Source: Nanopusillaceae archaeon (GTDB lineage Archaea > Nanobdellota > Nanobdellia > Nanobdellales > Nanobdellaceae). Taken from it: 10,119 nucleotides of DNA. Shown in pieces: positions 1 to 10,119 of this stretch; positions within the stretch are counted from its first letter, which is position 1; every line of letters begins with the position of its first letter. The position numbers and the translations under genes are program-made. Where the stretch lies: contig JBMFJL010000014.1 of assembly GCA_049973735.1 (NCBI GenBank), positions 1 to 10,119 on the forward strand, in the 5' to 3' direction. Below the pieces are notes generated by a model. It was not told where the DNA came from, searched no databases, and saw only the letters and a list, made by a program, of their open reading frames with translations.

Positions 1-326
1 CTTCTAATATATTCAATTATTTGTTTTTTCTTTTCTTCTAAAAGTTCTCTCTTATATTCCGTAGGCAATGGTATGTCTGTATTTTTTATTATTTCTTCTG
101 CTACCTTTAATATATCTTCAGTTCCAAAAGTCTTTTTTAAAGATTCTATTGATGCTCTTTCGCCTTTTTTAGCATCTTTAAATATTTCTTGAACAACCAA
201 TACCTCTCCTATATTTTTGATTTTTCCTTCTTTATATTCTAGAGCCTTTCTTAAATATACTATTATTTCAAAGTTATAGTTGTTCTTTTTATATTTTAAG
301 ATTATTTCTTGATCTTTATCCTTCAT
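1..326 (-). CDS. sdo1: Ribosome maturation protein, SBDS/Sdo1 family; N-terminal 108 codons only, gene runs off the left edge
   Basis: Hand translation of the minus strand from ATG at 326 gives MKDKDQEIILKYKKNNYNFEIIVYLRKALEYKEGKIKNIGEVLVVQEIFKDAKKGERASIESLKKTFGTEDILKVAEEIIKNTDIPLPTEYKRELLEEKKKQIIEYIR with no stop to position 1. The blocks FEI-V, EGK, VFKDAxKGxxAS, FGTxD and LPxxxxRELLEEKKKQI match the archaeal SBDS N-terminal (FYSH) domain as I remember it, e.g. the M. jannaschii homologue. The ATG overlaps the psmA stop by 11 nt (ATGAAGGATAA). SBDS next to psmA is the conserved archaeal order. Not in the supplied ORF track because it is edge-truncated. Confidence 0.8.
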   Translation of the reverse strand, partial: MKDKDQEIILKYKKNNYNFEIIVYLRKALEYKEGKIKNIGEVLVVQEIFKDAKKGERASIESLKKTFGTEDILKVAEEIIKNTDIPLPTEYKRELLEEKKKQIIEYIR

Positions 327-1032
327 AAAATTCTTTTATTTGATGATTTTGTAATATCTTTACTTTTTCTCCAACTTTTACATATCCTACAATTGTTCTT
401 TCATATGTGAAGTTATCCTTTAACAATTCTTTTAGTAAGTCTATACCATATCTTATTGCTTCTTCAGTTTTCATTTCTTTATAATTTTCTTCAAGTATTT
501 TCAATATTTTGTCTTCCCCTTCACCAATTACTGTCCCTAAAGTTCTATAAAATATTCCTGCAGGATCTAATATATAGAGTTTTGGAATTCCAGTTTTGTC
601 TATTCCCCCAATAATTAAGGAAACACCAAATGGTCTTACTCCACTATATCTTGTATCTAAATGCATTATATCACTTATTTCCCTTACAAGTAAATCAACT
701 TCTATATTTTTTCCGTAAGTTACCTTATATTCTTGTGCAATATGTCTTGCATAATCAATAAGAACTCTGCCATCTGGAATAAATCCTGCATAAGTTCCTA
801 GAATGGTATCATCAATTTCTAATATCTTTTCAATGTAGTCCGAAACTACCAATTTATTTGGTATTTTTTTATCTGCTACAATAACTACTCCATCTTTTGC
901 AACAAGCCCTATTGCTGTAGATCCTGACTTTACTGTCTGTCTTGCGTATTCTATTTGTAATATTCTACCTTCCGGAGAGAAAAACATTCCAAATCTATCG
1001 AATGGACTTGAAGGACCTATTTCACCATCCAT
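316..1032 (-). CDS. psmA: Proteasome (20S) alpha subunit
   Basis: 238-aa ORF. The N-terminal alpha-type signature FDRFGMFFSPEGRILQIEYA resembles [20 protein letters not shown] of the Thermoplasma alpha subunit. It is followed by KSGSTAIGL and YSGVRPFGVSLIIGG. There is no beta-type Thr1 propeptide. The genomic context (Pop5-like upstream, SBDS downstream) is canonical. Confidence 0.95.
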   Translation of the reverse strand: MDGEIGPSSPFDRFGMFFSPEGRILQIEYARQTVKSGSTAIGLVAKDGVVIVADKKIPNKLVVSDYIEKILEIDDTILGTYAGFIPDGRVLIDYARHIAQEYKVTYGKNIEVDLLVREISDIMHLDTRYSGVRPFGVSLIIGGIDKTGIPKLYILDPAGIFYRTLGTVIGEGEDKILKILEENYKEMKTEEAIRYGIDLLKELLKDNFTYERTIVGYVKVGEKVKILQNHQIKEFYEG

Positions 1033-1044
1033 TTTAAAAAAATT

Positions 1045-1323
1045 TTATGATATATTTAAAAATTGTTTTATACTTTTTATTGTTTTAAATACTTTTATTA
1101 TTTTTGAATTTTGGAGATAGAGTACAAATAATACTTTATGTAATTTTTTTCTATTTGTTGATATCACAAAAAAATCACTTATTTTCCATATTTTTATATT
1201 TGAATCTAAAAAATCTATATAACCAAAAAATTTTATATAATCTATTTTTAATCTATTCTTATCTAAATTTTCTACTAATATATATCTTCTTTTTATTTTT
1301 AATGATCCTGGAAGCTTTACCAA
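1045..1323 (-). CDS. rnp2: Probable RNase P protein component 2 (Pop5/Rnp2-like), unusually short (92 aa), TTG start
   Basis: The N-terminus (M)VKLPGSLKIKRRYILVE matches the Pop5 signature LPxxLRxxxRYIxFE (P. horikoshii Pop5: LPPTLRDKKRYIAFKV, from memory). Later blocks (FFVISTNRKKLHKVLFVL, and a basic C-terminal KSIKQF) align loosely. Position directly upstream of psmA is where Pop5 sits in the archaeal superoperon. There is no in-frame ATG, so the only usable start is TTG at 1323-1321, which overlaps the tfb stop by 7 nt. Sequence similarity is weak, hence moderate confidence. Confidence 0.55.
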   Translation of the reverse strand: MVKLPGSLKIKRRYILVENLDKNRLKIDYIKFFGYIDFLDSNIKIWKISDFFVISTNRKKLHKVLFVLYLQNSKIIKVFKTIKSIKQFLNIS

Positions 1324-2249
1324 TTGTCTTCGCTATTTAATTTTTGTTCAATTTCTTTTAAATTAAGCTTTTCTAACATTTCCTTATATCTATTTCTTAT
1401 TGTTACTTCTGTAATTCCAGCTACTTCTGCTATATCTTTTTGTGTTTTTTGTATTCCATGCTTTACACATGCTAAATATATTGCTGCTGCAGCTACTCCT
1501 GCAGGACCTCTTCCTGCAGTTATATCTGCTTGTTTTGCTTTTTCAACTATTTCTACTGCAGTTGCTACAACTTCTGGTGGTAAGTTTAATAGTGAAGAAA
1601 ATCTATGTACATATTCTACTACATCAATTGGTGATATCTTTAATCCAAGTGCTTGAACTAAATGTTTATAAGTTCTACCTAATTCTTTTTTATGTATATT
1701 AGCAGCATTTGTAATTTCATCAATTGTTCTGGCAACGTCATGCATTCTACATGCAATATATACACATGCAGCTACAACATTCTCTATAGATCTCCCCCTT
1801 ATCAATCCCTTTTCAACCGCTTCTAAATATAATCTTAATGCTGTTTCTTCAACTTGCTTTGGTAATTGTAGGAAAGATGAAATTCTTTTTAATTCTTGTT
1901 GGGCTAATTTTAAATTTCTTTCATAAGAGCTGGTTGATCTTTGTTGCCATTTTTTCAATTTTCTTATCAATAGCGTGTCTTCTACGGTATTTCCAGCTTC
2001 TGTCTTTCCAATTTCTGTAGATAAAGAGCTTGCCATGTTTGAAAACTTTATTGCGCTTCCAGTTCTAGATCTCTTTTCTATATCGTCAGAGTCAATTGTT
2101 CTATATTCTTTACCTAGATATGGTACTTGTTCTATTACATAACCACATTTTGTACATATTAGCTCTGCTGTTTTCTCGTTGTATATAAATTCTTTACTAC
2201 CACATACGGGACACTTAAGTTCCTCTTTTCTTATAAGCTTTTGAACCAT
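1317..2249 (-). CDS. tfb: Transcription initiation factor B (TFB, TFIIB homologue)
   Basis: 310 aa from the ATG at 2249 (MVQKLIRKEELK...). N-terminal Zn ribbon C-x2-C-x15-C-x2-C (CPVCGS...CTKCG). Two cyclin-fold repeats (RGRSIENVVAACVYIACR and GRGPAGVAAAAIYLAC). C-terminal HTH-like AGITEVTIRNRYKEM. The ORF-track start at 2315 adds 22 low-complexity residues that cover the predicted TATA box, so I prefer 2249. Confidence 0.95.
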   Translation of the reverse strand: MVQKLIRKEELKCPVCGSKEFIYNEKTAELICTKCGYVIEQVPYLGKEYRTIDSDDIEKRSRTGSAIKFSNMASSLSTEIGKTEAGNTVEDTLLIRKLKKWQQRSTSSYERNLKLAQQELKRISSFLQLPKQVEETALRLYLEAVEKGLIRGRSIENVVAACVYIACRMHDVARTIDEITNAANIHKKELGRTYKHLVQALGLKISPIDVVEYVHRFSSLLNLPPEVVATAVEIVEKAKQADITAGRGPAGVAAAAIYLACVKHGIQKTQKDIAEVAGITEVTIRNRYKEMLEKLNLKEIEQKLNSEDNW

Positions 2250-2271
2250 TATAAGGTTTTTAAAAATTATG

Positions 2272-2287
2272 CTTATAAACTTAACTT
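2272..2287 (-). promoter_or_regulatory. Candidate BRE/TATA box of tfb (leaderless geometry)
   Basis: The minus strand reads AAGTTAAG-TTTATAAG. The TATA-like octamer (plus coordinates 2272-2279) is centred about 26 nt upstream of the tfb ATG at 2249, and a purine-rich stretch sits just upstream of it. No Shine-Dalgarno motif lies between them. AT-rich background makes any TATA call tentative. Confidence 0.45.
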
Positions 2288-2409
2288 TTTTAAATATTAT
2301 CGATAGATAAAACACTTACCGATGACTAAATGGAAAAATATCGTTAAAAAATATTATTTTTGTAATGATAATTAAAGAAAGAAATCTTAATAAAATAAAC
2401 ATTCTAAGA

Positions 2410-3390
2410 TTATTTACTAACAATGGCATCAAAAGTTTTTCTCAACCATATTACAGAAAATATTAAGAAAGTTATAATTATTACTTGAATAGGATTAAAT
2501 ATTATTGAAAATATAGGTAGCAAAGATAGAGTTATTAGCATTGGAATATAAAATTGCAATTTAGATATGATCAAAATATCTCCTATGAATTTATTAGAGT
2601 AAGAATAGCCCCTCCTTATTGATATATATGGAGATAAGATCATACCTAGAGGTATTATTGACATATAAGTGAAGAAGAATAGATAGTAGAAGAAGTATTT
2701 TGTAAATCCAAATAAAAGTGGGTTAATAGTAGAAAAATATTTCAAGTAGGAATAAAAAATCCACAGTAATAATAAGGAAATAAATACAATTCTTATAAGT
2801 TCTGAGTTTGAGACCTCAAGATTTCTAGATCTACCTATTCTTTTGTATTCTATAATTACTGGTTTTAATGAAAATATGATGGGTACAAAATATCCAAAAG
2901 ATATTAAAGAAATAAATATCGTTAAAATATAGCTTAGATTTATTCTTTTTGCAATAGTTATGTTTATAGTATCCTTTTTTTCTTTTTTAGACCTTTCCAA
3001 GTATATTCTATAAAATAATAAGAATAATAAATATGAAACAACTAGTAGAAAAAGGTCATTATTAAATAAGAAAAATAATATTATAAGAGCAATTATTGGA
3101 ATGAATATTTTCTCTAAAGGGTTTTCTCTTGGATAAATTAATTTCTTTATTTCTGCTGTAACCAATGGTAGATTTATATATAGACCATACCATGATCCAA
3201 CGATATTAAATATAAATAATGTTATCAGATAAGATAGAAAAGTAAAAATTATGGAAAAGAGTAGATTAATTATGCCCAACTGTATAGTATACCAGGAATT
3301 GAAAGATAAAAAGAATGCAACTATTATCAAATAGTAAACAACATTTCTATCGATTTTAATATATTCGAACATTATAAATTTATAGATCAT
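2410..3390 (-). CDS. Hypothetical polytopic membrane protein (about 8-10 TM segments), no recognisable family
   Basis: I trimmed the ORF to the ATG at 3390 (MIYKFIMFEYIKIDRN...; an alternative ATG is at 3372). The 100 codons upstream in the track ORF (3391-3690) are antisense to the conserved lonB 5' end. 326 aa, with repeated 18-25-residue I/L/F/Y-rich hydrophobic stretches separated by short K/R-rich loops (RSKKEKKD, YKRIGRSRN, SIRRGYSY). It contains no Cys or His by my reading, so it has no HExxH, archaeosortase or rhomboid-type catalytic motifs. Confidence 0.7.
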   Translation of the reverse strand: MIYKFIMFEYIKIDRNVVYYLIIVAFFLSFNSWYTIQLGIINLLFSIIFTFLSYLITLFIFNIVGSWYGLYINLPLVTAEIKKLIYPRENPLEKIFIPIIALIILFFLFNNDLFLLVVSYLLFLLFYRIYLERSKKEKKDTINITIAKRINLSYILTIFISLISFGYFVPIIFSLKPVIIEYKRIGRSRNLEVSNSELIRIVFISLLLLWIFYSYLKYFSTINPLLFGFTKYFFYYLFFFTYMSIIPLGMILSPYISIRRGYSYSNKFIGDILIISKLQFYIPMLITLSLLPIFSIIFNPIQVIIITFLIFSVIWLRKTFDAIVSK

Positions 3391-3427
3391 TGTAATTTTT
3401 ATATTTTTATAGGTTAAAATATGGTAT
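3391..3427. promoter_or_regulatory. 37-bp divergent promoter spacer between the membrane-protein gene and lonB
   Basis: The sequence is tgtaatttttatatttttataggttaaaatatggtat. TTTTTATATTTTTATA (about 3396-3411) lies about 25 nt upstream of the lonB ATG at 3428. ATATTTTAAC on the opposite strand (about 3413-3422) lies about 25-30 nt upstream of the minus-strand ATG at 3390. The two TATA-like elements must share this tiny spacer. Confidence 0.4.
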
Positions 3428-5293
3428 ATGAATAACGAAGGTATTATATCTGTAAAGGATTTATTCAATATATTTAATTTTAAAACTACCGAAGAAATAA
3501 AGGTACCTGAAAAAATTTCTGAGCAAATTATTGGACAAGATGAGGCTTTGGAAATAATAAAAAAAGCTGCCAAACAAAGGAGAAATATACTATTAATAGG
3601 AGATCCTGGTACTGGTAAGTCTATGCTAGCCCAAGCATTGGCAGAAATTTTGTCAGAAGATAAGGATTTAGTGAATAGTTTAGAGGACATAGTTGTATTT
3701 CCAAATCCTCAAGATGAATTTAATCCAATAGTTAGAACATTCCCAGCTGGAGTTGGTAGAAAAATTGTAGAGGATATGAGGAAAAAATTAATTGAACAAG
3801 CAAAGGCATTTCAGTATTTTTATATAATATTACTACTAATTTCTGCGTTAACTCCAATGTATTTTTACTACATTGGTAATTATATAATGGCAGGTGCTAC
3901 TTTTGTAGGATTAATGATATTAATGCTGGGTATGTCCTTTTCAATGCAATTTGTTCAAAGACAAATACTTAAAAATTTACCAAAAATCATTGTAGATAAT
4001 TCTGAAAGAAAATCTGTTCCATTTATAGATGCTACTGGTGCATTTGAAGGCATGTTGTTTGGTGATGTTTTACATGATCCATACCAGTCCGGAGGTTTGG
4101 AGACGCCACCGCATCAAAGAGTAATTGCAGGCGCAATACATAAGGCAAATAAGGGTGTATTGTTTATAGATGAAATTGGAACATTGAGACCAGAAGTGCA
4201 AATTGAGTTACTAACTGTAATGCAAGAAAAGAAATATCCTATATTTGGTAGATCTGAGAGATCTGCAGGATCTATGGTAAGAACAACACCAGCTCCAGCA
4301 GATTTTGTATTAGTAGCAGCTGGAAATATAGAAACATTAAAGAATCTTCATCCAGCTTTTAGATCAAGAATTAGAGGATATGGATATGAAGTATTTATGA
4401 AGAATGAAGTACCATTTACCAAGGAAAATGCATTAAAGTTTGCACAATTTGTAGCCCAAGAGGTTAAAAAAACAGGTAATATACCACATTTCACAAAGGA
4501 AGCAGTTATAGAAATAATAAGAGAAGCTCAGAGAAGGTCTGGCAGAAAATCATATTTAACATTAAGATTAAGAGATTTAGGTGGATTAGTAAGACTGGCT
4601 GGAGATATTGCGAAATCAAAAGGTAAGAAATATGTAGAACCAGAAGATGTTATTGAAGCAAAAGAAAAAGCATTGAGCTTAGAAGAACAAATTTCAAAAT
4701 ACTATATTAAAAAGAAAAAAGAGTATCAAGTAATTAAGACAGAAGGTTATTCAATAGGAAGGGTGAATGGATTGGGGGTAATTGGAACAAATTTATATTA
4801 TTCTGGAATAGTATTGCCTGTTGAGGCAGAGGTAGTCCCTGGAAAAGGTTTAGGAAAAGTAATTGCTACGGGAAATTTGGGAAAAATAGCAAAAGAAGCA
4901 ATAATAAATGTTTCAGCTGTTATAAAAAAGAAATTTAATGAAGATTTAAAGAGATATAATGTTCATGTTCAATTTTTGCAAACATATGAAGGTGTTGAAG
5001 GGGATTCAGCATCTATAACCGTTGCTACAGCAATAATTTCTGCACTTAAAAATTGGCCAGTTAGACAAGATATAGCAATGACAGGATCCTTATCTATAAG
5101 AGGGGAAGTATTACCAGTGGGTGGGGTGATAGCAAAGATCGAAGCTGCAATTGATGCTGGATTAAAAGAAGTTATAATACCAGAAGGGAACTACAATGAT
5201 GTACCAGATGAATTATTTGAAAAGATAAAGATAACACCTGTAAAGGATATAGATGAAGTAATAAAGATTGCACTAAAAACAAGTAATTTCTGA
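3428..5293 (+). CDS. lonB: Archaeal membrane-anchored ATP-dependent Lon protease (LonB type)
   Basis: 621 aa. Walker A is GDPGTGKS (aa 58-65, nt 3599-3622). Two hydrophobic helices (aa about 128-173, nt 3809-3946) are inserted between Walker A and Walker B (GVLFIDEIG, aa 243-251), which is the LonB hallmark. The protease domain carries EGDSAS (Ser527, nt 5006-5008) and [10 protein letters not shown] (Lys570, nt 5135-5137). The Ser-Lys spacing of 43 residues matches characterised LonB enzymes as I recall them. Stop is TGA followed by in-frame TAA. Confidence 0.95.
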
Positions 5294-5298
5294 TAAAC

Positions 5299-5312
5299 TT
5301 TTAAATTTTTTT
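5299..5312 (+). terminator. Oligo-T tract downstream of lonB (candidate archaeal terminator), overlapping a TATA-like box for the next gene
   Basis: cTTTTaaaTTTTTTTc starts 6 nt after the lonB stop, with T4 at 5299-5302 and T7 at 5306-5312. Archaeal termination typically occurs at oligo-T runs. The same TTTTAAATTTT is centred about 25 nt upstream of the ATG at 5329, so it may double as the promoter of the surface-protein gene. Confidence 0.35.
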
Positions 5313-5328
5313 CAGTAATCTTTATGGT

Positions 5329-5388
5329 ATGAGTAAAAAATATATAATACTATTAAGTTTTCTATTTATATCTGGTTCTATATATTCA
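5329..5388 (+). other. N-terminal Sec-type signal peptide of the giant ORF
   Basis: MSKK (basic n-region), YIILLSFLFISGSI (h-region), then YS|Q. There are small or aliphatic residues at -1 and -3 (I-Y-S). Predicted cleavage is after Ser20. Confidence 0.7.
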
Positions 5389-8300
5389 CAAACAATATGG
5401 CACCAAAGCAATTTATATACACCAGTAGCATTTCTAAGTATACAATTGCCAACATATACATATATTGCGGGGCAAGATGTTTCATTTAATGTAACAATAG
5501 ATTATAGAGATATATATTATATACCGAATGTATCTTTAGTTGTTCAAATAATGCAAAAAAATGATAACAATCCAATATATCCATTTCAATTTACATCAGA
5601 TAATGAAATATACGAATTCTATTTGAATAATATATATTTAGAACCTGGAAAAACTATTACAATACCATTGAGCTATAAATTACCACAAAATATAAAATCC
5701 GGATACTATTATATTGTTGTATACTTATATACTCCCCTAGGAGAAATTAATGGTTTACCCTTTATATATTATCCAAAAACATATGCAGAGATATATGTAA
5801 ACAATCCAACTGGAAATTATCCTCTAATATATATATATAAAGATGGTACATATTTGTCTTCTTCTACTTTATATACTTGGGGTTCTACATTATCGTCTTC
5901 AGGATATTATTATTCTTCTTTAAGTGGTCCATCAGGCTTTGGTGTACAAAATTATGTAAATCTAACAGTAACAGTCTACTCTGATGTAGATTCTGATGCA
6001 TCGTTAAAAATAGTAATTGCCCCATGGGATGATATATTGTATCCACCCGTATACAGTGTTACGAAAAATGTTAGTTTGAAAAAAGGATATAATAGAATAG
6101 AGATAGATAATATAAATGTTGCAAATTATATGCCCAACGCATATTCTATAAGAATAGAATTGGCTAAAGATGGTCAAATTCAATCCATATATAGATCTAG
6201 ATTTATAGTTTTAGGACCAACAGTTAGGTTGGGAGGTGTATTTTTACAAGGAAATGGAAATTTAACAGTTATAGTATCACCATCACCGGATCATTTTACT
6301 TATCCAGTAACTGAAAATGTTTCGCTTAAAATATTCTCTAATGTTTTGGGATATTCTGAAGAAATATATTTAGGAAATATAGGTTGGAATCTTACACAAT
6401 TTACATATGTCAATAAAAGATTACCCATAAATTCAACAGAATTTGATTTATGTTTGACTCTATTTTATCATCCCGAAGGGCCATTTTATAATTTAATAGG
6501 TACCGAATATTGTACTTATTATAGGTTAGATAAGTCAAATACATATGGAATACCATTAGAAGATCTAATTTATGTAAATTATTCGAATAACTATTTCTAT
6601 ATATGTTCGAATGTTTCTGGAATATTGAATATAGGATATAATTCTGAAAGCAATGTTATATATACTGCAAAAATAGAAAATGGTTGTTTGAATTATACAT
6701 TTTCAGATAGTGGAAAGTATTATATATACTTTTCTTCGAATGAATATTCTAATAGTTGGGCTATAAACTATTCAAATTTAGTTCAAAGTAGCGAAAATAT
6801 CTCTACTAATCAAACTGCTCAAGGAACTAGTCCTATTTCCAGTAACAAAGGTATATTCACAATAATAGTTATATTATTAATAATATTTGCTGTATTATAT
6901 ATCATGATGAAGAAGATGAAGAAAGGAAAATTCTTGTTGTTACCACTACTATTAATACCAGCATTATTTAGTATACACTCTCAAAATGTATCTCTCAGTA
7001 CAAATTCTATATGTATACCAAATGACAGTTTAAACATAACTACAGCCAATTTTACAGGTACAGTTTATGTAAATTTTACATTCTATAATTTATCTAATAC
7101 AAGTCAGATATTTGCTAAAGGCTCATATTCATATAATGGAAATAGTATAACTAAATATAGTTATAATGTTAGTTTTTATAATTTACCAAAAAATCTACCA
7201 GATCAAATAAATACAGTATTTATGGGATATTTAATAACAGTGAAAAATTGTACTGGTTCTGGAAGCAATTTAAAATGTAATACTACCGATTATAATGGAA
7301 CAGTATATATAAATTATCCATATTACTTCAAATATTATTCTAATCCAATCTATCTTGGATCTAGTGCAGCAGTGCAGATAATACCAGGATGTATTTCTTC
7401 TACAATAAAAATAAGTCCTGTTACAAAAGGAGATATAGTATACTTCAACTTTACATTGGTTCAAGCCTCTGGAAATATATTGACGAGAACAAATTGTCCA
7501 GGAACTGGAGATCCGGAGTGGGGAACAAATATATGTGATTTAAACATCTCTAACTATATAAATCAAGTAGGTAATTATACATTTCTAGGATCTTACGATT
7601 ATAGTGGTGTAAAATATAATGTTTCTGTTTCTGATAATCCACTACAAGTATTAAATTCAGTTTCTGGTTCATTTACCAGTCAATCTTGTTCTCATGCAGG
7701 AACAAATACTGGTGCAAGTACAAATTCGAATCCATTATCAATAAATATAACTTATTTTGGAAATGGACAAGGATCATATTATACATATTACAATGGAGTA
7801 TACATATTGGCACAGAATACTACTTTGGCATTTTCTGTTGCGAGTGGTTATAATGCTTTATGTTCAGATGCTCACTCAACGAATGGTACTTCGGCAGTGG
7901 CTATATGGTTGTACAAAACAAATAATAACTATGATTTAAATGTTGCAAGATATATTGCGGGTATATCAAATATAGGGATTAATTTCACGAATTATTCAGT
8001 TAGCAGAAATACGATATATAATTTGTATCCAGATCAGGGATTCATGTATCCGGGATTGCCATGGTATGCTCCGGTTGCTGGTTCATCTTTAGTTTCTGTA
8101 TATAATTTCACCCAGCAAGATGCTGGATACTATGTAATATATCAAGATTATATAAAAACAGTTTGTGATAATCCAGTATCATATATTTGTGATCCAAATG
8201 GAGGATTATGTAATATAAGTGCTATTATTAATCAAGCCCAAGGTTGGTTACCAATAAATCCAGAACCAGGATATAAAATTCTAGTTATAAATCCAAATGC

Positions 8301-9669
8301 TACATTGAGTGTTTCCAACATTACATATTATCCATATATATGGAATACAAATCCAGGTATTGGAATATATATAGGGGATATAAACAATGTTGGTATTGGA
8401 GATTTAATTGTATTGGTTAATTATACAATACAAAATATAAATTACGGATATAGTTTTGTATTAAAGGAAAACAATGTTAATAAATTGTACATATATTTCT
8501 CAACAGATAAATGTCAACATGTGGATTGTAGAATACCTTACAATATAACATATTTAAATTACTATGGATTATCAGTGTATTCTCCCGTATTAAATAGTGG
8601 TTATGTAGATATAAGATGGGATAATTTAAGCATAAATACTACACCCGATTTAACAAAAATTACTTATGGAGCCCCTTCAAATATAAAATTGGAAATAAAG
8701 AATTTAGGTCCAGTGCCAGCAAAAAACATATCTGTTAGAAATATTTATTATAATCCCAACTGTATAGAAATCTTAAGCAATAATGATATGATAGATTCAT
8801 TAGATCCTGGAAGTGTATCATATTTAAATGTTAAAATAAATATAAAAAGCTTGCAATGTAAGAGTAGCGATTACAATATTACATTTACAATATATGGATG
8901 GAATACATACATTTATAACTATTCTATAATCTTGCCAGTTAGCTATATAGAATATCCAAGGGAAGGTATACAATTAACAGATCAAACAATATTCAATATA
9001 TATGACATAAATGCTAAAGAATGTTATATATCATTCAGTGGTGGATTATATCCAAGAAACTGTAATGCGCAATTCGTATATACACAGAATATGTGTCCAA
9101 GTTCTTTATGTATTGTGCAAATACAATCTAAGAACGATTATGCATTGTATTATAGTAAAAACTATACATACTATACTTATTTATTAAATTCTACAACAAT
9201 ATTCGGAATATCCACAGAGTCAAATTCTATAACATTGTTTGTTGGACAAAAGATAAACTATAAAATACTAATAAAGAACCTTGTTCCAACAGATTTGCAA
9301 TGTACATTAAATGTATTACCACAAATAACAAATTCAATTGCACAAATTTCCAGTTATGATGTAAATGGTGTACAAAATGCCAAAAGCTTTACAATACCAG
9401 CTGGAGGAGCAGTTATTCTAGCATCAGATATGGTAGGTTTGAGTAGTGGGGTTGGAGACTATTTAGTTGGTATACAATGTACATCAAGCGCATATGGTAG
9501 TGCATCATTTACAGTAGATATTCCTGTTTATGTATTGTCCCCAAGTGGAAATATTCTAACAAATAATACTTTATCTAATTTAGTTGTTTCAGAGAAAACG
9601 AATGTTCCAGTAATGGCAATAGCAGGCGTTGCTGTTATAACCTTACTTACTCTACTTTCTATAATTTAG
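5329..9669 (+). CDS. Giant secreted, membrane-anchored, putatively heavily N-glycosylated surface protein (S-layer or adhesin-like), bipartite; no family name assignable
   Basis: Uninterrupted 1446-aa ORF with an N-terminal signal peptide, an internal TM/basic/signal-like hairpin and a C-terminal TM helix. Composition is dominated by N, Y, S, T, I and is poor in K and E, unlike the neighbouring cytosolic proteins. By hand count there are 48 N-x-S/T sequons (14 before aa 508, 34 after) and 25 Cys (4 + 21), whereas LonB and PsmA have none. Several stretches resemble CARDB/DUF11-type beta-sandwich domains, e.g. YGAPSNIKLEIKNLGPVPAKNISVRN...LDPGSVSYLNVKINI (nt about 8641-8853), TYIAGQDVSFNVTIDY...LEPGKTITIPLSYKLPQNIKSGYYYIVVYL (nt about 5446-5733), and LFVGQKINYKILIKNL...FTIPAGGAVIL (nt about 9226-9528). 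Confidence 0.85.
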   Translation: MSKKYIILLSFLFISGSIYSQTIWHQSNLYTPVAFLSIQLPTYTYIAGQDVSFNVTIDYRDIYYIPNVSLVVQIMQKNDNNPIYPFQFTSDNEIYEFYLNNIYLEPGKTITIPLSYKLPQNIKSGYYYIVVYLYTPLGEINGLPFIYYPKTYAEIYVNNPTGNYPLIYIYKDGTYLSSSTLYTWGSTLSSSGYYYSSLSGPSGFGVQNYVNLTVTVYSDVDSDASLKIVIAPWDDILYPPVYSVTKNVSLKKGYNRIEIDNINVANYMPNAYSIRIELAKDGQIQSIYRSRFIVLGPTVRLGGVFLQGNGNLTVIVSPSPDHFTYPVTENVSLKIFSNVLGYSEEIYLGNIGWNLTQFTYVNKRLPINSTEFDLCLTLFYHPEGPFYNLIGTEYCTYYRLDKSNTYGIPLEDLIYVNYSNNYFYICSNVSGILNIGYNSESNVIYTAKIENGCLNYTFSDSGKYYIYFSSNEYSNSWAINYSNLVQSSENISTNQTAQGTSPISSNKGIFTIIVILLIIFAVLYIMMKKMKKGKFLLLPLLLIPALFSIHSQNVSLSTNSICIPNDSLNITTANFTGTVYVNFTFYNLSNTSQIFAKGSYSYNGNSITKYSYNVSFYNLPKNLPDQINTVFMGYLITVKNCTGSGSNLKCNTTDYNGTVYINYPYYFKYYSNPIYLGSSAAVQIIPGCISSTIKISPVTKGDIVYFNFTLVQASGNILTRTNCPGTGDPEWGTNICDLNISNYINQVGNYTFLGSYDYSGVKYNVSVSDNPLQVLNSVSGSFTSQSCSHAGTNTGASTNSNPLSINITYFGNGQGSYYTYYNGVYILAQNTTLAFSVASGYNALCSDAHSTNGTSAVAIWLYKTNNNYDLNVARYIAGISNIGINFTNYSVSRNTIYNLYPDQGFMYPGLPWYAPVAGSSLVSVYNFTQQDAGYYVIYQDYIKTVCDNPVSYICDPNGGLCNISAIINQAQGWLPINPEPGYKILVINPNATLSVSNITYYPYIWNTNPGIGIYIGDINNVGIGDLIVLVNYTIQNINYGYSFVLKENNVNKLYIYFSTDKCQHVDCRIPYNITYLNYYGLSVYSPVLNSGYVDIRWDNLSINTTPDLTKITYGAPSNIKLEIKNLGPVPAKNISVRNIYYNPNCIEILSNNDMIDSLDPGSVSYLNVKINIKSLQCKSSDYNITFTIYGWNTYIYNYSIILPVSYIEYPREGIQLTDQTIFNIYDINAKECYISFSGGLYPRNCNAQFVYTQNMCPSSLCIVQIQSKNDYALYYSKNYTYYTYLLNSTTIFGISTESNSITLFVGQKINYKILIKNLVPTDLQCTLNVLPQITNSIAQISSYDVNGVQNAKSFTIPAGGAVILASDMVGLSSGVGDYLVGIQCTSSAYGSASFTVDIPVYVLSPSGNILTNNTLSNLVVSEKTNVPVMAIAGVAVITLLTLLSII
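5827..5839 (+). repeat. (AT)6A dinucleotide microsatellite inside the surface-protein coding sequence
   Basis: atatatatatata at 5827-5839 encodes part of PLIYIYK. An A7 homopolymer also lies at 5553-5559 in the same gene. Confidence 0.9.
6850..6981 (+). other. Internal hairpin: TM anchor, KKMKKGK, then a second signal-peptide-like segment
   Basis: aa 508-551 read GIFTIIVILLIIFAVLYIMM-KKMKKGK-FLLLPLLLIPALFSIHS|Q. This is preceded by an S/T/N/Q-rich stalk (NLVQSSENISTNQTAQGTSPISSNK). In-frame ATGs lie at 6904, 6907 and 6916. The motif SIHS|Q mirrors SIYS|Q of the N-terminal signal peptide. Confidence 0.75.
9610..9666 (+). other. C-terminal TM anchor of the giant ORF
   Basis: VMAIAGVAVITLLTLLSII followed by stop, preceded by the S/T/N-rich stalk SPSGNILTNNTLSNLVVSEKTN. 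There is no basic cytoplasmic tail and no PGF-CTERM-like motif. Confidence 0.7.
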
Positions 9670-9921
9670 AATTTTTTTAATTTCTAATATTAAATCGTGT
9701 ATACCAATACCTAAGAACAATAATGCTATCATATAAAGATTGAAGATATAAGTTAAGAGTGCTGCAAATGAAAAGTACAAATGATGTATTTTTGTTTTGT
9801 ATATTTTTGACTTTGTCACTATTTCGATGAACAATTCTGGCTTAAATTTCTTTGTTATATATTCTGCTGAAAGGAAACCTATAGCGAAAGTTAAAGCATA
9901 TGTTATACCATCAGTTACCAT
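9652..9921 (-). CDS. Small hypothetical membrane protein (89 aa, 2-3 TM segments)
   Basis: The track ORF starts at a TTG (9939). The first ATG is at 9921 (MVTDGITYALTFAIGFLSAEYI...). Hydrophobic segments are ITYALTFAIGFLSAEYI, LYFSFAALLTYIF and LYMIALLFLGIGI, separated by a basic loop (KKFKPE...KSKIYKTK). It fills the only otherwise unassigned space between two confident genes. No family is recognised. Confidence 0.45.
   Translation of the reverse strand: MVTDGITYALTFAIGFLSAEYITKKFKPELFIEIVTKSKIYKTKIHHLYFSFAALLTYIFNLYMIALLFLGIGIHDLILEIKKILNYRK
9672..9678 (+). terminator. T7 tract 3 nt after the giant ORF stop (candidate terminator)
   Basis: tag-aa-TTTTTTT-aatttc. An oligo-T run sits immediately downstream of the TAG at 9667-9669. 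It lies inside the convergent small ORF on the other strand. Confidence 0.35.
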
Positions 9922-9977
9922 AATAAAAATTAAGACCAATTTAAATTTAAAATTTTATCACTATAAAAATATTTTTC
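9922..9977. promoter_or_regulatory. Divergent promoter spacer between the small membrane ORF and rps24e
   Basis: A 56-bp, almost pure A/T spacer (ttaaatttaaaattttatcactataaaaatattttt) with TATA-like elements usable on both strands at about 25-30 nt from each start codon. No Shine-Dalgarno motif. The assignment is not discriminating in this AT-rich background. Confidence 0.3.
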
Positions 9978-10119
9978 ATGGAAGTAGTTATACTAACTAG
10001 AGAAAAAAATCAGTTATTGAATAGAGAGGAAATAATAGTCAAGATAGAACATAAGGGAGAAGCAACTCCAAAAAGAGAAGAATTAAAGAAGAAAATAGCA
10101 GCTATGATAGGAAAAGATG
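9978..10119 (+). CDS. rps24e: 30S ribosomal protein S24e; N-terminal 47 codons, runs off the right edge
   Basis: Hand translation from the ATG at 9978 gives MEVVILTREKNQLLNREEIIVKIEHKGEATPKREELKKKIAAMIGKD. This matches the S24e pattern (NxLLxRxEixfxixHxGxxTPsRxexxxkla). It is not in the ORF track; the 9797-10000 track ORF is in a different frame. Confidence 0.85.
   Translation, partial: MEVVILTREKNQLLNREEIIVKIEHKGEATPKREELKKKIAAMIGKD

Follow-up and report, generated by a model that had tools for sequence, protein, structure and literature searches.

A 10,119-bp stretch of a Nanopusillaceae archaeon (GenBank assembly GCA_049973735.1, contig JBMFJL010000014.1, positions 1 to 10,119; hereafter the window) raises the question of why two complete surface-protein modules are encoded in one long open reading frame (ORF), and whether they reach the cell surface as one protein or as two. 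The fused ORF has been deposited as MGC9079424.1 (ACP5G1_01660), a 'hypothetical protein' of a Nanopusillaceae metagenome-assembled genome (MAG), is cluster member P0047 in our searches, and has the orthologs Nps_00425, Nst1_583, MJ1_0095 and YN1_4260. According to our analysis, it is probably an ancient in-frame fusion of a two-gene surface-protein operon, whose single precursor would be cut at an internal signal by signal peptidase I into two anchored products. The features of the ORF that bear on this proposal, including its transmembrane (TM) segments and their Kyte-Doolittle (KD) hydropathy, are as follows.

5329-9669, plus strand: fused ORF, 1446 aa plus stop, translated in one frame with no stop
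5329-5388, plus strand: signal peptide 1, residues 1-20 (MSKKYIILLSFLFISGSIYS), ending in SIYS and followed by Q21; S20 and Q21 are invariant in 11 homologues
5389-6771, plus strand: module 1 ectodomain, residues 21-481, all-beta with tandem beta-sandwich domains, 14 sequons
6772-6849, plus strand: stalk, residues 482-507, S/T/N/Q-rich, poorly conserved
6850-6909, plus strand: TM1, the stop-transfer anchor of module 1, residues 508-527 (GIFTIIVILLIIFAVLYIMM), the top hydrophobic peak of the protein (mean KD 3.18)
6904-6918, plus strand: in-frame ATGs at 6904, 6907 and 6916, the first two being the last two codons of TM1
6910-6930, plus strand: basic patch KKMKKGK, residues 528-534, predicted cytoplasmic loop
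6931-6981, plus strand: h- and c-regions of the putative internal signal peptide, residues 535-551 (FLLLPLLLIPALFSIHS, that is, FLLLPLLLIPALF followed by SIHS)
6979-6984, plus strand: predicted signal peptidase I site S551/Q552, the Q552 codon beginning at 6982
6982-9609, plus strand: module 2 ectodomain, residues 552-1427, all-beta, Cys-rich, 34 sequons
9610-9666, plus strand: C-terminal TM anchor of module 2, residues 1428-1446, KD peak 2.66, kept in fused homologues

Both the layout (signal peptide 1, stalk, TM helix, basic patch, second signal-like segment, second ectodomain and C-terminal TM) and the coordinates agree with an earlier, sequence-only reading of the window, which had also rightly reported the absence of a stop between the modules and the in-frame position of the three ATGs. 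Its topology logic (out, in, out, in) holds as well, and the SI[YH]S-Q motif that it had described does occur at both the N-terminal and the internal site, where S and Q are invariant in the close clade (Nanopusillus, Nanobdella and YN1). In total, the protein, with a calculated mass of approximately 160 kDa before glycosylation, has 48 N-x-S/T sequons, and it is poor in K/R. The possibility that modules 1 and 2 are duplicates of each other was ruled out (best BLASTP E 0.18).

The window is one MAG contig, and stops or frameshifts were seen in this gene in the low-coverage contigs L011, L032, L035 and L041, as might be expected if sequencing or assembly had produced the junction, or if it were a fusion of very recent date, confined to one lineage and masking two ordinary adjacent genes. 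The distribution of the fused form leaves this explanation with practically no probability. A homologue search gave 10 full-length proteins (1410-1461 aa, 51-56% identity) from Nanobsidianus stetteri, Nanobdella aerobiophila (MJ1_0095), strain YN1 and metagenomes. A genome scan gave 10 loci, including the closed genomes of N. acidilobi (CP010514), Nanobdella (AP019769) and YN1 (AP031373), and the junction frame was open in all 10. When 1.8 billion cluster representatives were searched with a profile, four further divergent fused clades emerged (P0013, P0014, P0016 and the P0017/P0038 group), which are 31-34% identical in module 1. Their contigs share the order proteasome alpha, TFB, membrane protein, LonB and target gene, and they were regarded as orthologs because of this common neighbourhood. 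Approximately 18 extra fused loci, including a fifth divergent clade (L039), came from a metagenome scan, and a word-indexed homologue search with the module-1 profile returned two fragments only. Altogether, 32 fused loci with 30 distinct junction sequences were collected, covering Nanopusillus, Nanobsidianus, Nanobdella, YN1 and five more divergent syntenic clades; the gene was always 3' of LonB, and none had a stop between the modules. An open frame in 32 loci of independent projects, three closed genomes and clades down to approximately 31% identity argues strongly against an artefact. The suggestion of the sequence-only reading that an error had removed a stop codon is thus refuted by the occurrence of the fused ORF in three complete genomes and dozens of metagenome contigs.

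Throughout the 30 distinct junctions, a TM helix is followed by a basic loop of 4-12 residues and a hydrophobic segment of 13-17 residues. The basic region contains 3-5 K/R in every one of them, a small residue occupies position -1 in 29 (the exception is L040), and a Met lies no more than 6 residues ahead of the basic patch in 29 (the exception, L031/P0007, has Ile). Because it is conserved over 30 distinct sequences, the pattern is well past chance.

Two separate genes in place of the fused ORF were found in more distant archaea. The profile search also gave four module-1-only proteins (P0023, P0028, P0030 and P0031; 517-527 aa), of which P0030 is annotated as Aenigmarchaeota; module 1 matched P0023 with a BLASTP E of 2e-26. 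All four stop directly after a TM helix and a short basic tail (e.g., ...LLLRRKKEEKYYD and then the stop codon). On their contigs, the next gene (gene 2) has the same orientation and begins before gene 1 has ended: it overlaps the stop of gene 1 by 8 nt in L012 and by 4 nt in the other three, where stop and start share ATGA (...AAA AAA TGA also read as ATG A...). In all four cases gene 2 opens with a clear signal peptide, such as MKKYLNLILTFFLIIVSFQIVIA/DEE or MRSAVKWLAIVIMPFALLAYSVSA/E (a slash marks the predicted cleavage site, here and below). Seven further unfused loci with the same arrangement were retrieved by the metagenome scan (L043, L044, L047-L052), giving at least 11 unfused loci. 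In all of them gene 2 has a canonical N-terminal signal peptide; most often it overlaps gene 1 by the 4 nt of ATGA, and otherwise the overlap is 8 nt or the genes are 4-10 nt apart. We then ran a hidden Markov model (HMM) built from the fused proteins on the gene products of the unfused loci, with E-values calculated at Z=1e6. Its module-1 part matched gene 1 of the seven new unfused loci with E 1e-14 to 5e-54, and its module-2 core matched gene 2 of L012, L016, L017, L043 and L044 with E 2e-11 to 3e-34; hhalign aligned gene 2 of L012 to module 2 with 88% probability. The core of module 2 that is homologous to the secreted gene 2 products spans approximately residues 710-1060. Module-1-only and module-2-only genes are therefore found adjacent to each other in at least five lineages, the separate-gene counterpart by which a polyprotein can be recognized. 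Gene 2 of L047-L052 (e.g., L049 from 6608) encodes secreted proteins of approximately 835-855 aa with a common C-terminus (...FWNQD...C...); the anchor gene may not always have the same partner.

The unfused state occurs in several lineages of diverse composition (G+C 23-48%). By parsimony, the predicted direction of change is fusion rather than fission, because the unfused state is present in several diverse lineages while the fused state is limited to one syntenic clade, and because the fused proteins keep a Met exactly at the former gene 2 start. The sequence-only reading had listed a recent gene fusion among its options and had proposed a homologue search for separate modules. That search did show unfused pairs, and a fused operon is well supported; the fusion is ancient, with two-gene versions only in more distant archaea, and the word 'recent' does not hold.

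What the fused protein has kept at the junction looks like the signal peptide of its downstream partner. A segment that comes after TM1 (N-out, C-in) and the basic loop must insert N-in and C-out, which places its c-region on the outer face, the side of signal peptidase. A signal peptidase gene, MJ1_0412, has been reported in Nanobdella (Kato et al.). The properties of the segment were measured on 10 representatives of all fused clades, with the internal cleavage site picked by eye. In these representatives, it comprises 13-17 residues including a polar c-region, of which approximately 13 are hydrophobic, whereas TM1 has 18-21 aa; its mean KD is 1.95-2.6 against 2.6-3.5 for TM1. Pro or Gly occurs within it in nine of the 10, and position -3 is I/V/S and position -1 is S/A/G in all 10. 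The h-region of the window (FLLLPLLLIPALF) has 13 hydrophobic residues with 2 Pro, and is followed by Ile at -3 and Ser at -1 (I-H-S then Q). Among clades, the c-regions read IHS/Q, VFS/S, IKA/D, SSG/L, SYS/L and IYG/Q, that is, the sequence has fully turned over and the -3/-1 rule has been kept. Within the close clade, S551 and Q552 are invariant amid the least conserved region of the protein; together with K531, L540 and L546 they are the sole invariant positions of the junction region (stalk, TM1, loop and second signal peptide), and [IV]-x-S/Q is common to the N-terminal and internal sites.

Of the marks of a class 1 Sec signal peptide, the segment shows the charged n-region, the short h-region with a breaker and the small residues at -1 and -3. 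It does not show the N-terminal position, being located at residues 528-551 of a 1446-aa ORF; it would be N-terminal only if translation began at ATG 6904, 6907 or 6916, and the homologous segment in the unfused orthologs is N-terminal. The order expected of a processed membrane polyprotein is also seen: a stop-transfer anchor leads through a short cytoplasmic loop to a correctly oriented internal signal sequence. Because unfused gene 2 opens with a canonical N-terminal signal peptide, sequence comparison identifies the internal segment as the retained signal peptide of the downstream partner.

From the observed anatomy, conservation, synteny, unfused orthologous pairs and signal-peptide character we infer the following course for the direction and mechanism of the fusion, for the cleavage, and for the complex and function of the products. 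The ancestral gene 1 would have encoded a type I membrane glycoprotein with a signal peptide, beta-sandwich ectodomain, stalk, TM and short basic tail, and the ancestral gene 2, starting at the ATGA overlap, its large Cys-rich partner, a secreted beta-sandwich protein that carried a Sec signal peptide too. The ancestor of the hot-spring Nanoarchaeales would have lost the intervening stop. For this, a +1 slip in the A-run of Lys codons before ATGA might have been sufficient, since one extra A would bring the ATG in frame (AAA AAA ATG AAA...). The basic tail of gene 1 and the signal-peptide n-region of gene 2 would thereby have merged into one cytoplasmic loop of 4-12 residues. In the resulting single-chain precursor, signal peptide 1 would begin translocation and be cut after S20, TM1 would halt transfer, and the internal signal peptide would restart it in the N-in/C-out orientation, followed by a signal peptidase I cut after S551. 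One product would be module 1, held by a hairpin of TM1, loop and second signal peptide; the other would be module 2 from Gln552 with its own C-terminal TM, in an obligatory 1:1 ratio with module 1, and its N-terminal Gln may cyclise to pyroglutamate. Because most unfused gene 2 products lack a membrane anchor of their own, the two products probably form a surface complex of an anchor (module 1) and a partner (module 2).

Several points weigh against this account. The choice of the internal site was made by eye, and most such segments offer some position that fits the -3/-1 rule. The metagenomic variant L040 has Pro at -1 (NVHP/Q), which should block cutting there, and a pure polyprotein model leaves the conservation of the junction Met unexplained. 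Further, the evolutionary direction rests on parsimony with outgroups that are poorly placed taxonomically, the HMM detected no similarity between module 2 and the gene 2 products of L047-L052, and Nps_00425 was undetected in the shotgun proteomics of N. acidilobi (Wurch et al., PMC4935971). The topology would also work as well if the precursor were never cut at the junction. It would then remain, after removal of signal peptide 1, a single glycoprotein with three TM segments and ectodomains joined by a TM hairpin, in which the covalent link also secures the 1:1 stoichiometry; the Pro at -1 in L040 and the four transmembrane domains (TMDs) given for Nps_00425 (Wurch et al., PMC4935971) would fit such a protein. 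We nevertheless consider it unlikely. Approximately 13 hydrophobic residues and a polar c-region are short for a stable span when TM1 has 18-21 residues, and breakers occur in nine of 10 representatives. Moreover, S551/Q552 are invariant within a variable region and repeat the motif of the N-terminal cleavage site, and the c-region has turned over completely without any divergent clade losing the small residues at -1 and -3. Cutting at the internal signal, one of the routes offered by the sequence-only reading, is thus the best-supported mechanism on account of the signal-peptide character and the conserved site of the segment, with the cleavage itself standing as a prediction.

The junction Met would have a role if translation of a leaderless internal mRNA from the conserved ATG supplied all of module 2 or an additional share of it, a nested gene that would be compatible with processing of the polyprotein. 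A TATA-like box would then lie within the TM1-coding sequence, and the 'internal' signal peptide would stand at the N-terminus of its product in the usual way. Because unfused gene 2 starts exactly here by the ATGA overlap, the ATGs at 6904, 6907 and 6916 can be read from sequence as the relic, or the still active start codon, of the once separate downstream gene. Gene starts in these loci (3428, 1032, 2315 and the fused ORF in the window; L020-L023) are preceded by a TATA-like box with the consensus TTTAAAAA, its 5' end being most often at -29 to -31, and no Shine-Dalgarno (SD)-like motif was found upstream of them, which implies that the mRNAs of these loci are mostly leaderless. The fused ORF is separated from LonB by a spacer of 35 nt, and its predicted mRNA would be leaderless or nearly so because the box is only 29 nt upstream of the start. 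The two boxes of the window that matter here are given below, the second with its score from a home-made position weight matrix (PWM).

5300-5307, plus strand: TATA-like box TTTAAATT, inside the LonB spacer and 29 nt upstream of the start of the fused ORF
6868-6875, plus strand: weak TATA-like 8-mer GTTATATT, candidate internal promoter element, 36 nt upstream of ATG 6904, PWM score 3.38

The PWM was trained on 54 real gene starts of related loci, and the 3' ends of 62 other TM-coding segments served as the control. Real starts scored 5.9±1.4, junction-Met sites scored 4.55 on average (maximum 5.78, at -31) and the TM-end controls 1.94±2.2, a comparison of junction sites that is confounded by codon composition and shared ancestry. 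Production of module 2 from the internal start is favoured by the Met kept in 29 of 30 junctions though the adjoining TM residues vary, by the seemingly leaderless genes of these loci with a box modal at -29 to -31, and by the mean of 4.55 for the junction 8-mers, which only 15% of the other TM-ends reach. Furthermore, TTTAATAA occurs at exactly -31 in L007, L021 and L022, which belong to three separate clades, and L011 has an in-frame TAA in module 1, with the remaining frame including module 2 intact. On the other hand, L031/P0007 has Ile in place of the junction Met, the box of the window itself is weak (3.38, at -36), and no SD-like motif precedes the junction ATG. The box falls on Leu-Ile-Ile codons, AT-rich Leu/Ile codons (TTA ATA ATx) yield TATA-like strings, and the sites are homologous rather than independent, so that the promoter scores are no more than suggestive; L011 is a single contig at 6x coverage. 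As the sole route, an internal start would leave no selection against a stop between the modules, yet none of the 32 loci has one. On balance, a nested gene is possible but considerably less probable than cutting of the fused precursor. A gene with a dual output, in which the polyprotein is cut at the captured internal signal and a fossil start with its TATA-like box makes the second protein alone at tunable stoichiometry, seems less likely still.

Some individual loci deserve mention here. In L011 (ERZ1669406 NODE_692, 6x; 1176-1178 and 1341-4679), the TAA stands where relatives have a Ser codon of module 1, and module 2 has a tandem duplication of its first approximately 230 residues. P0011 was considered as a natural stand-alone module 2 and rejected, as it is a gene call downstream of the in-frame TAA in this 6x contig. 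L040 (Pro at -1) and L031/P0007 (Ile for Met) each contradict one main mechanism, if they are real and functional.

We then asked what kind of surface protein the precursor represents. No family of Pfam or NCBIfam matched above the cut-off. Residues 549-636 of module 2 gave DUF11 with E 0.011 (16.5 bits against a cut-off of 24.6) and CARDB with E 0.14, both below the Pfam cut-offs, and a profile search of PDB sequences found no relative. AlphaFold2 (AF2) models are all-beta and of low confidence, with a pLDDT of 60 for module 1 and 52 for module 2. The top 50 PDB matches by Foldseek were nearly all strings of complement/alpha-2-macroglobulin MG domains, with a few other beta-sandwich-rich entries and a query-normalised TM-score (TMq) no higher than 0.29. 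No function was drawn from these matches, since they are generic MG/Ig-like beta-sandwich strings and the models are of low confidence. In Nanobdella, MJ1_0095 was placed among 'other cell surface proteins' and is weakly expressed, with MJ1_0160 as the S-layer candidate and the junction unmentioned (Kato et al., preprint). Similarly, Nps_00425 was listed as 'S-layer domain', arCOG02079, with 4 TMDs, and the predicted S-layer protein of N. acidilobi is Nps760, not Nps_00425 (Wurch et al., PMC4935971). A main S-layer lattice protein was therefore rejected, given the weak expression of MJ1_0095 and the lack of any sequence or specific fold match to known S-layer proteins. Because of this weak expression, and because other proteins are the S-layer candidates, we conclude that the fused protein is a conserved minor surface glycoprotein. 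The glycoproteins YN4_326 and YN4_730 of the YN4 glycoproteome preprint could not be mapped to this family. Elsewhere in these loci, L010 (14345-14992, minus strand) and its homologues in L001-L009 encode conserved proteins of approximately 215 and 410 aa that start with MK(E/G/N)Q(L/F)SI... or MRNQ(T/I)E... and continue with a long hydrophobic stretch; these look like type IV pilin or archaellin-type (class III) signal sequences.

The closest parallels that we are aware of in design are viral glycoprotein polyproteins and FbcH of Bradyrhizobium japonicum. FbcH is a cytochrome b/c1 polyprotein for which Thöny-Meyer and colleagues reportedly proved cleavage at the internal signal by experiment in 1991. 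There, too, one prokaryotic ORF encodes two membrane proteins with an internal signal peptide after the last TM of the first, the signal peptidase cut (here predicted) gives two subunits of one complex, and relatives have separate adjacent genes. FbcH differs in being bacterial, part of a respiratory complex and not a glycosylated surface protein, and it has no sequence relationship to the present protein. In the viral polyproteins p62-6K-E1 of alphaviruses, prM-E of flaviviruses and Gn-Gc of bunyaviruses, stop-transfer anchors alternate with internal signal peptides, and host signal peptidase releases products in a 1:1 ratio. As proposed here, the signal peptide of the downstream protein stays with the upstream product and adds a membrane segment to it. 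Those systems are viral and processed in the eukaryotic endoplasmic reticulum, whereas the gene described here is cellular, lies in a conserved LonB context and has no viral homology. Clostridioides difficile SlpA (cut by Cwp84) and Staphylothermus marinus tetrabrachion are each made as a single precursor whose two envelope subunits remain together after cutting, and tetrabrachion is an archaeal precedent of a surface polyprotein. They differ from the present case in using dedicated or unknown proteases at a soluble site, with no internal TM, basic loop, signal-peptide hairpin or restart of translocation.

The unfused relatives resemble SlaA/SlaB of Sulfolobales, with adjacent co-transcribed genes for an anchored beta-sandwich protein and a large N-glycosylated, often anchorless partner. 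However, there is no sequence or specific fold similarity, the anchor gene comes first, the AF2 model lacks a coiled-coil stalk, the Nanobdella ortholog is weakly expressed, and both modules are anchored in the fused form. The comparison with a two-component S-layer drawn by the sequence-only reading thus survives as a likeness of anchor-plus-partner logic alone, and membership of that family does not. The 'S-layer domain' label (arCOG02079/COG1361, a CARDB/DUF11-type beta-sandwich) covers one generic domain and not the architecture or the junction. In the literature searched, no archaeal protein was described as processed at an internal signal peptide and the junction was undescribed, and we know of no earlier archaeal example of internal-signal processing by signal peptidase.

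The remainder of the window (G+C approximately 28%) contains archaeal housekeeping genes, as follows.

316-1032, minus strand: proteasome alpha
1317-2315, minus strand: TFB
3428-5293, plus strand: LonB

Between proteasome alpha and TFB lies a 92-aa ORF with a TTG start (1045-1323, minus strand) and without a Pfam match, whose counterpart position in N. acidilobi is occupied by Nps_00405, annotated as RNase P/MRP subunit POP5. Between TFB and LonB is the gene of a multi-TM protein; its listed ORF (2410-3690, minus strand, 426 aa) is over-extended and overlaps the LonB start. The conserved form of this protein (ortholog Nps_00415) starts with MFEYIK, has approximately 320 aa and belongs to no Pfam family; Nps_00415 is given 9 TMDs (Wurch et al., PMC4935971). 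A 95-aa ORF with a TTG start (9652-9939, minus strand) is convergent with the fused ORF and overlaps its 3' end by 18 nt; the same place holds the 102-aa single-TM Nps_00430 in N. acidilobi and threonyl-tRNA synthetase in the divergent clades L020-L023. LonB has 611-621 aa in the window, N. acidilobi, L021 and L023, and 1070-1120 aa in Nanobdella, YN1 and L022 (long forms at L005 2637-5930, L008 2616-5978 and L022 6764-9976). The extra approximately 470 aa are placed after the Walker A motif and match LAGLIDADG_2 below threshold; this insertion is probably an intein present in some lineages only.

The comparative series, which runs from an ATGA-coupled pair in several uncultured archaeal lineages to a fused ORF in every Nanoarchaeales locus retrieved, shows an operon becoming a polyprotein stepwise, with the targeting information of both products kept. 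The current annotation is 'hypothetical' or 'S-layer domain, 4 TMD', and standard signal-peptide predictors scan N-termini only. Because the annotation is uninformative and the predictors are confined to N-termini, similar fused precursors have probably been overlooked elsewhere. Orthologs exist in two cultivated systems, Nanobdella aerobiophila/Metallosphaera and N. acidilobi/Acidilobus, which makes the hypothesis directly testable. Should cutting of the precursor occur, viral glycoprotein polyproteins would have here a rare counterpart encoded by a cell, the first archaeal one to our knowledge, and archaeal signal peptidase would be able to act on an internal signal after a stop-transfer anchor. 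The gene takes up approximately 0.7% of genomes of approximately 0.6 Mb and lies beside LonB in each hot-spring nanoarchaeal clade retrieved. Given this share of a small genome and its presence in every retrieved clade, it is likely to be important for the envelope or the host contact of these obligate ectosymbionts.

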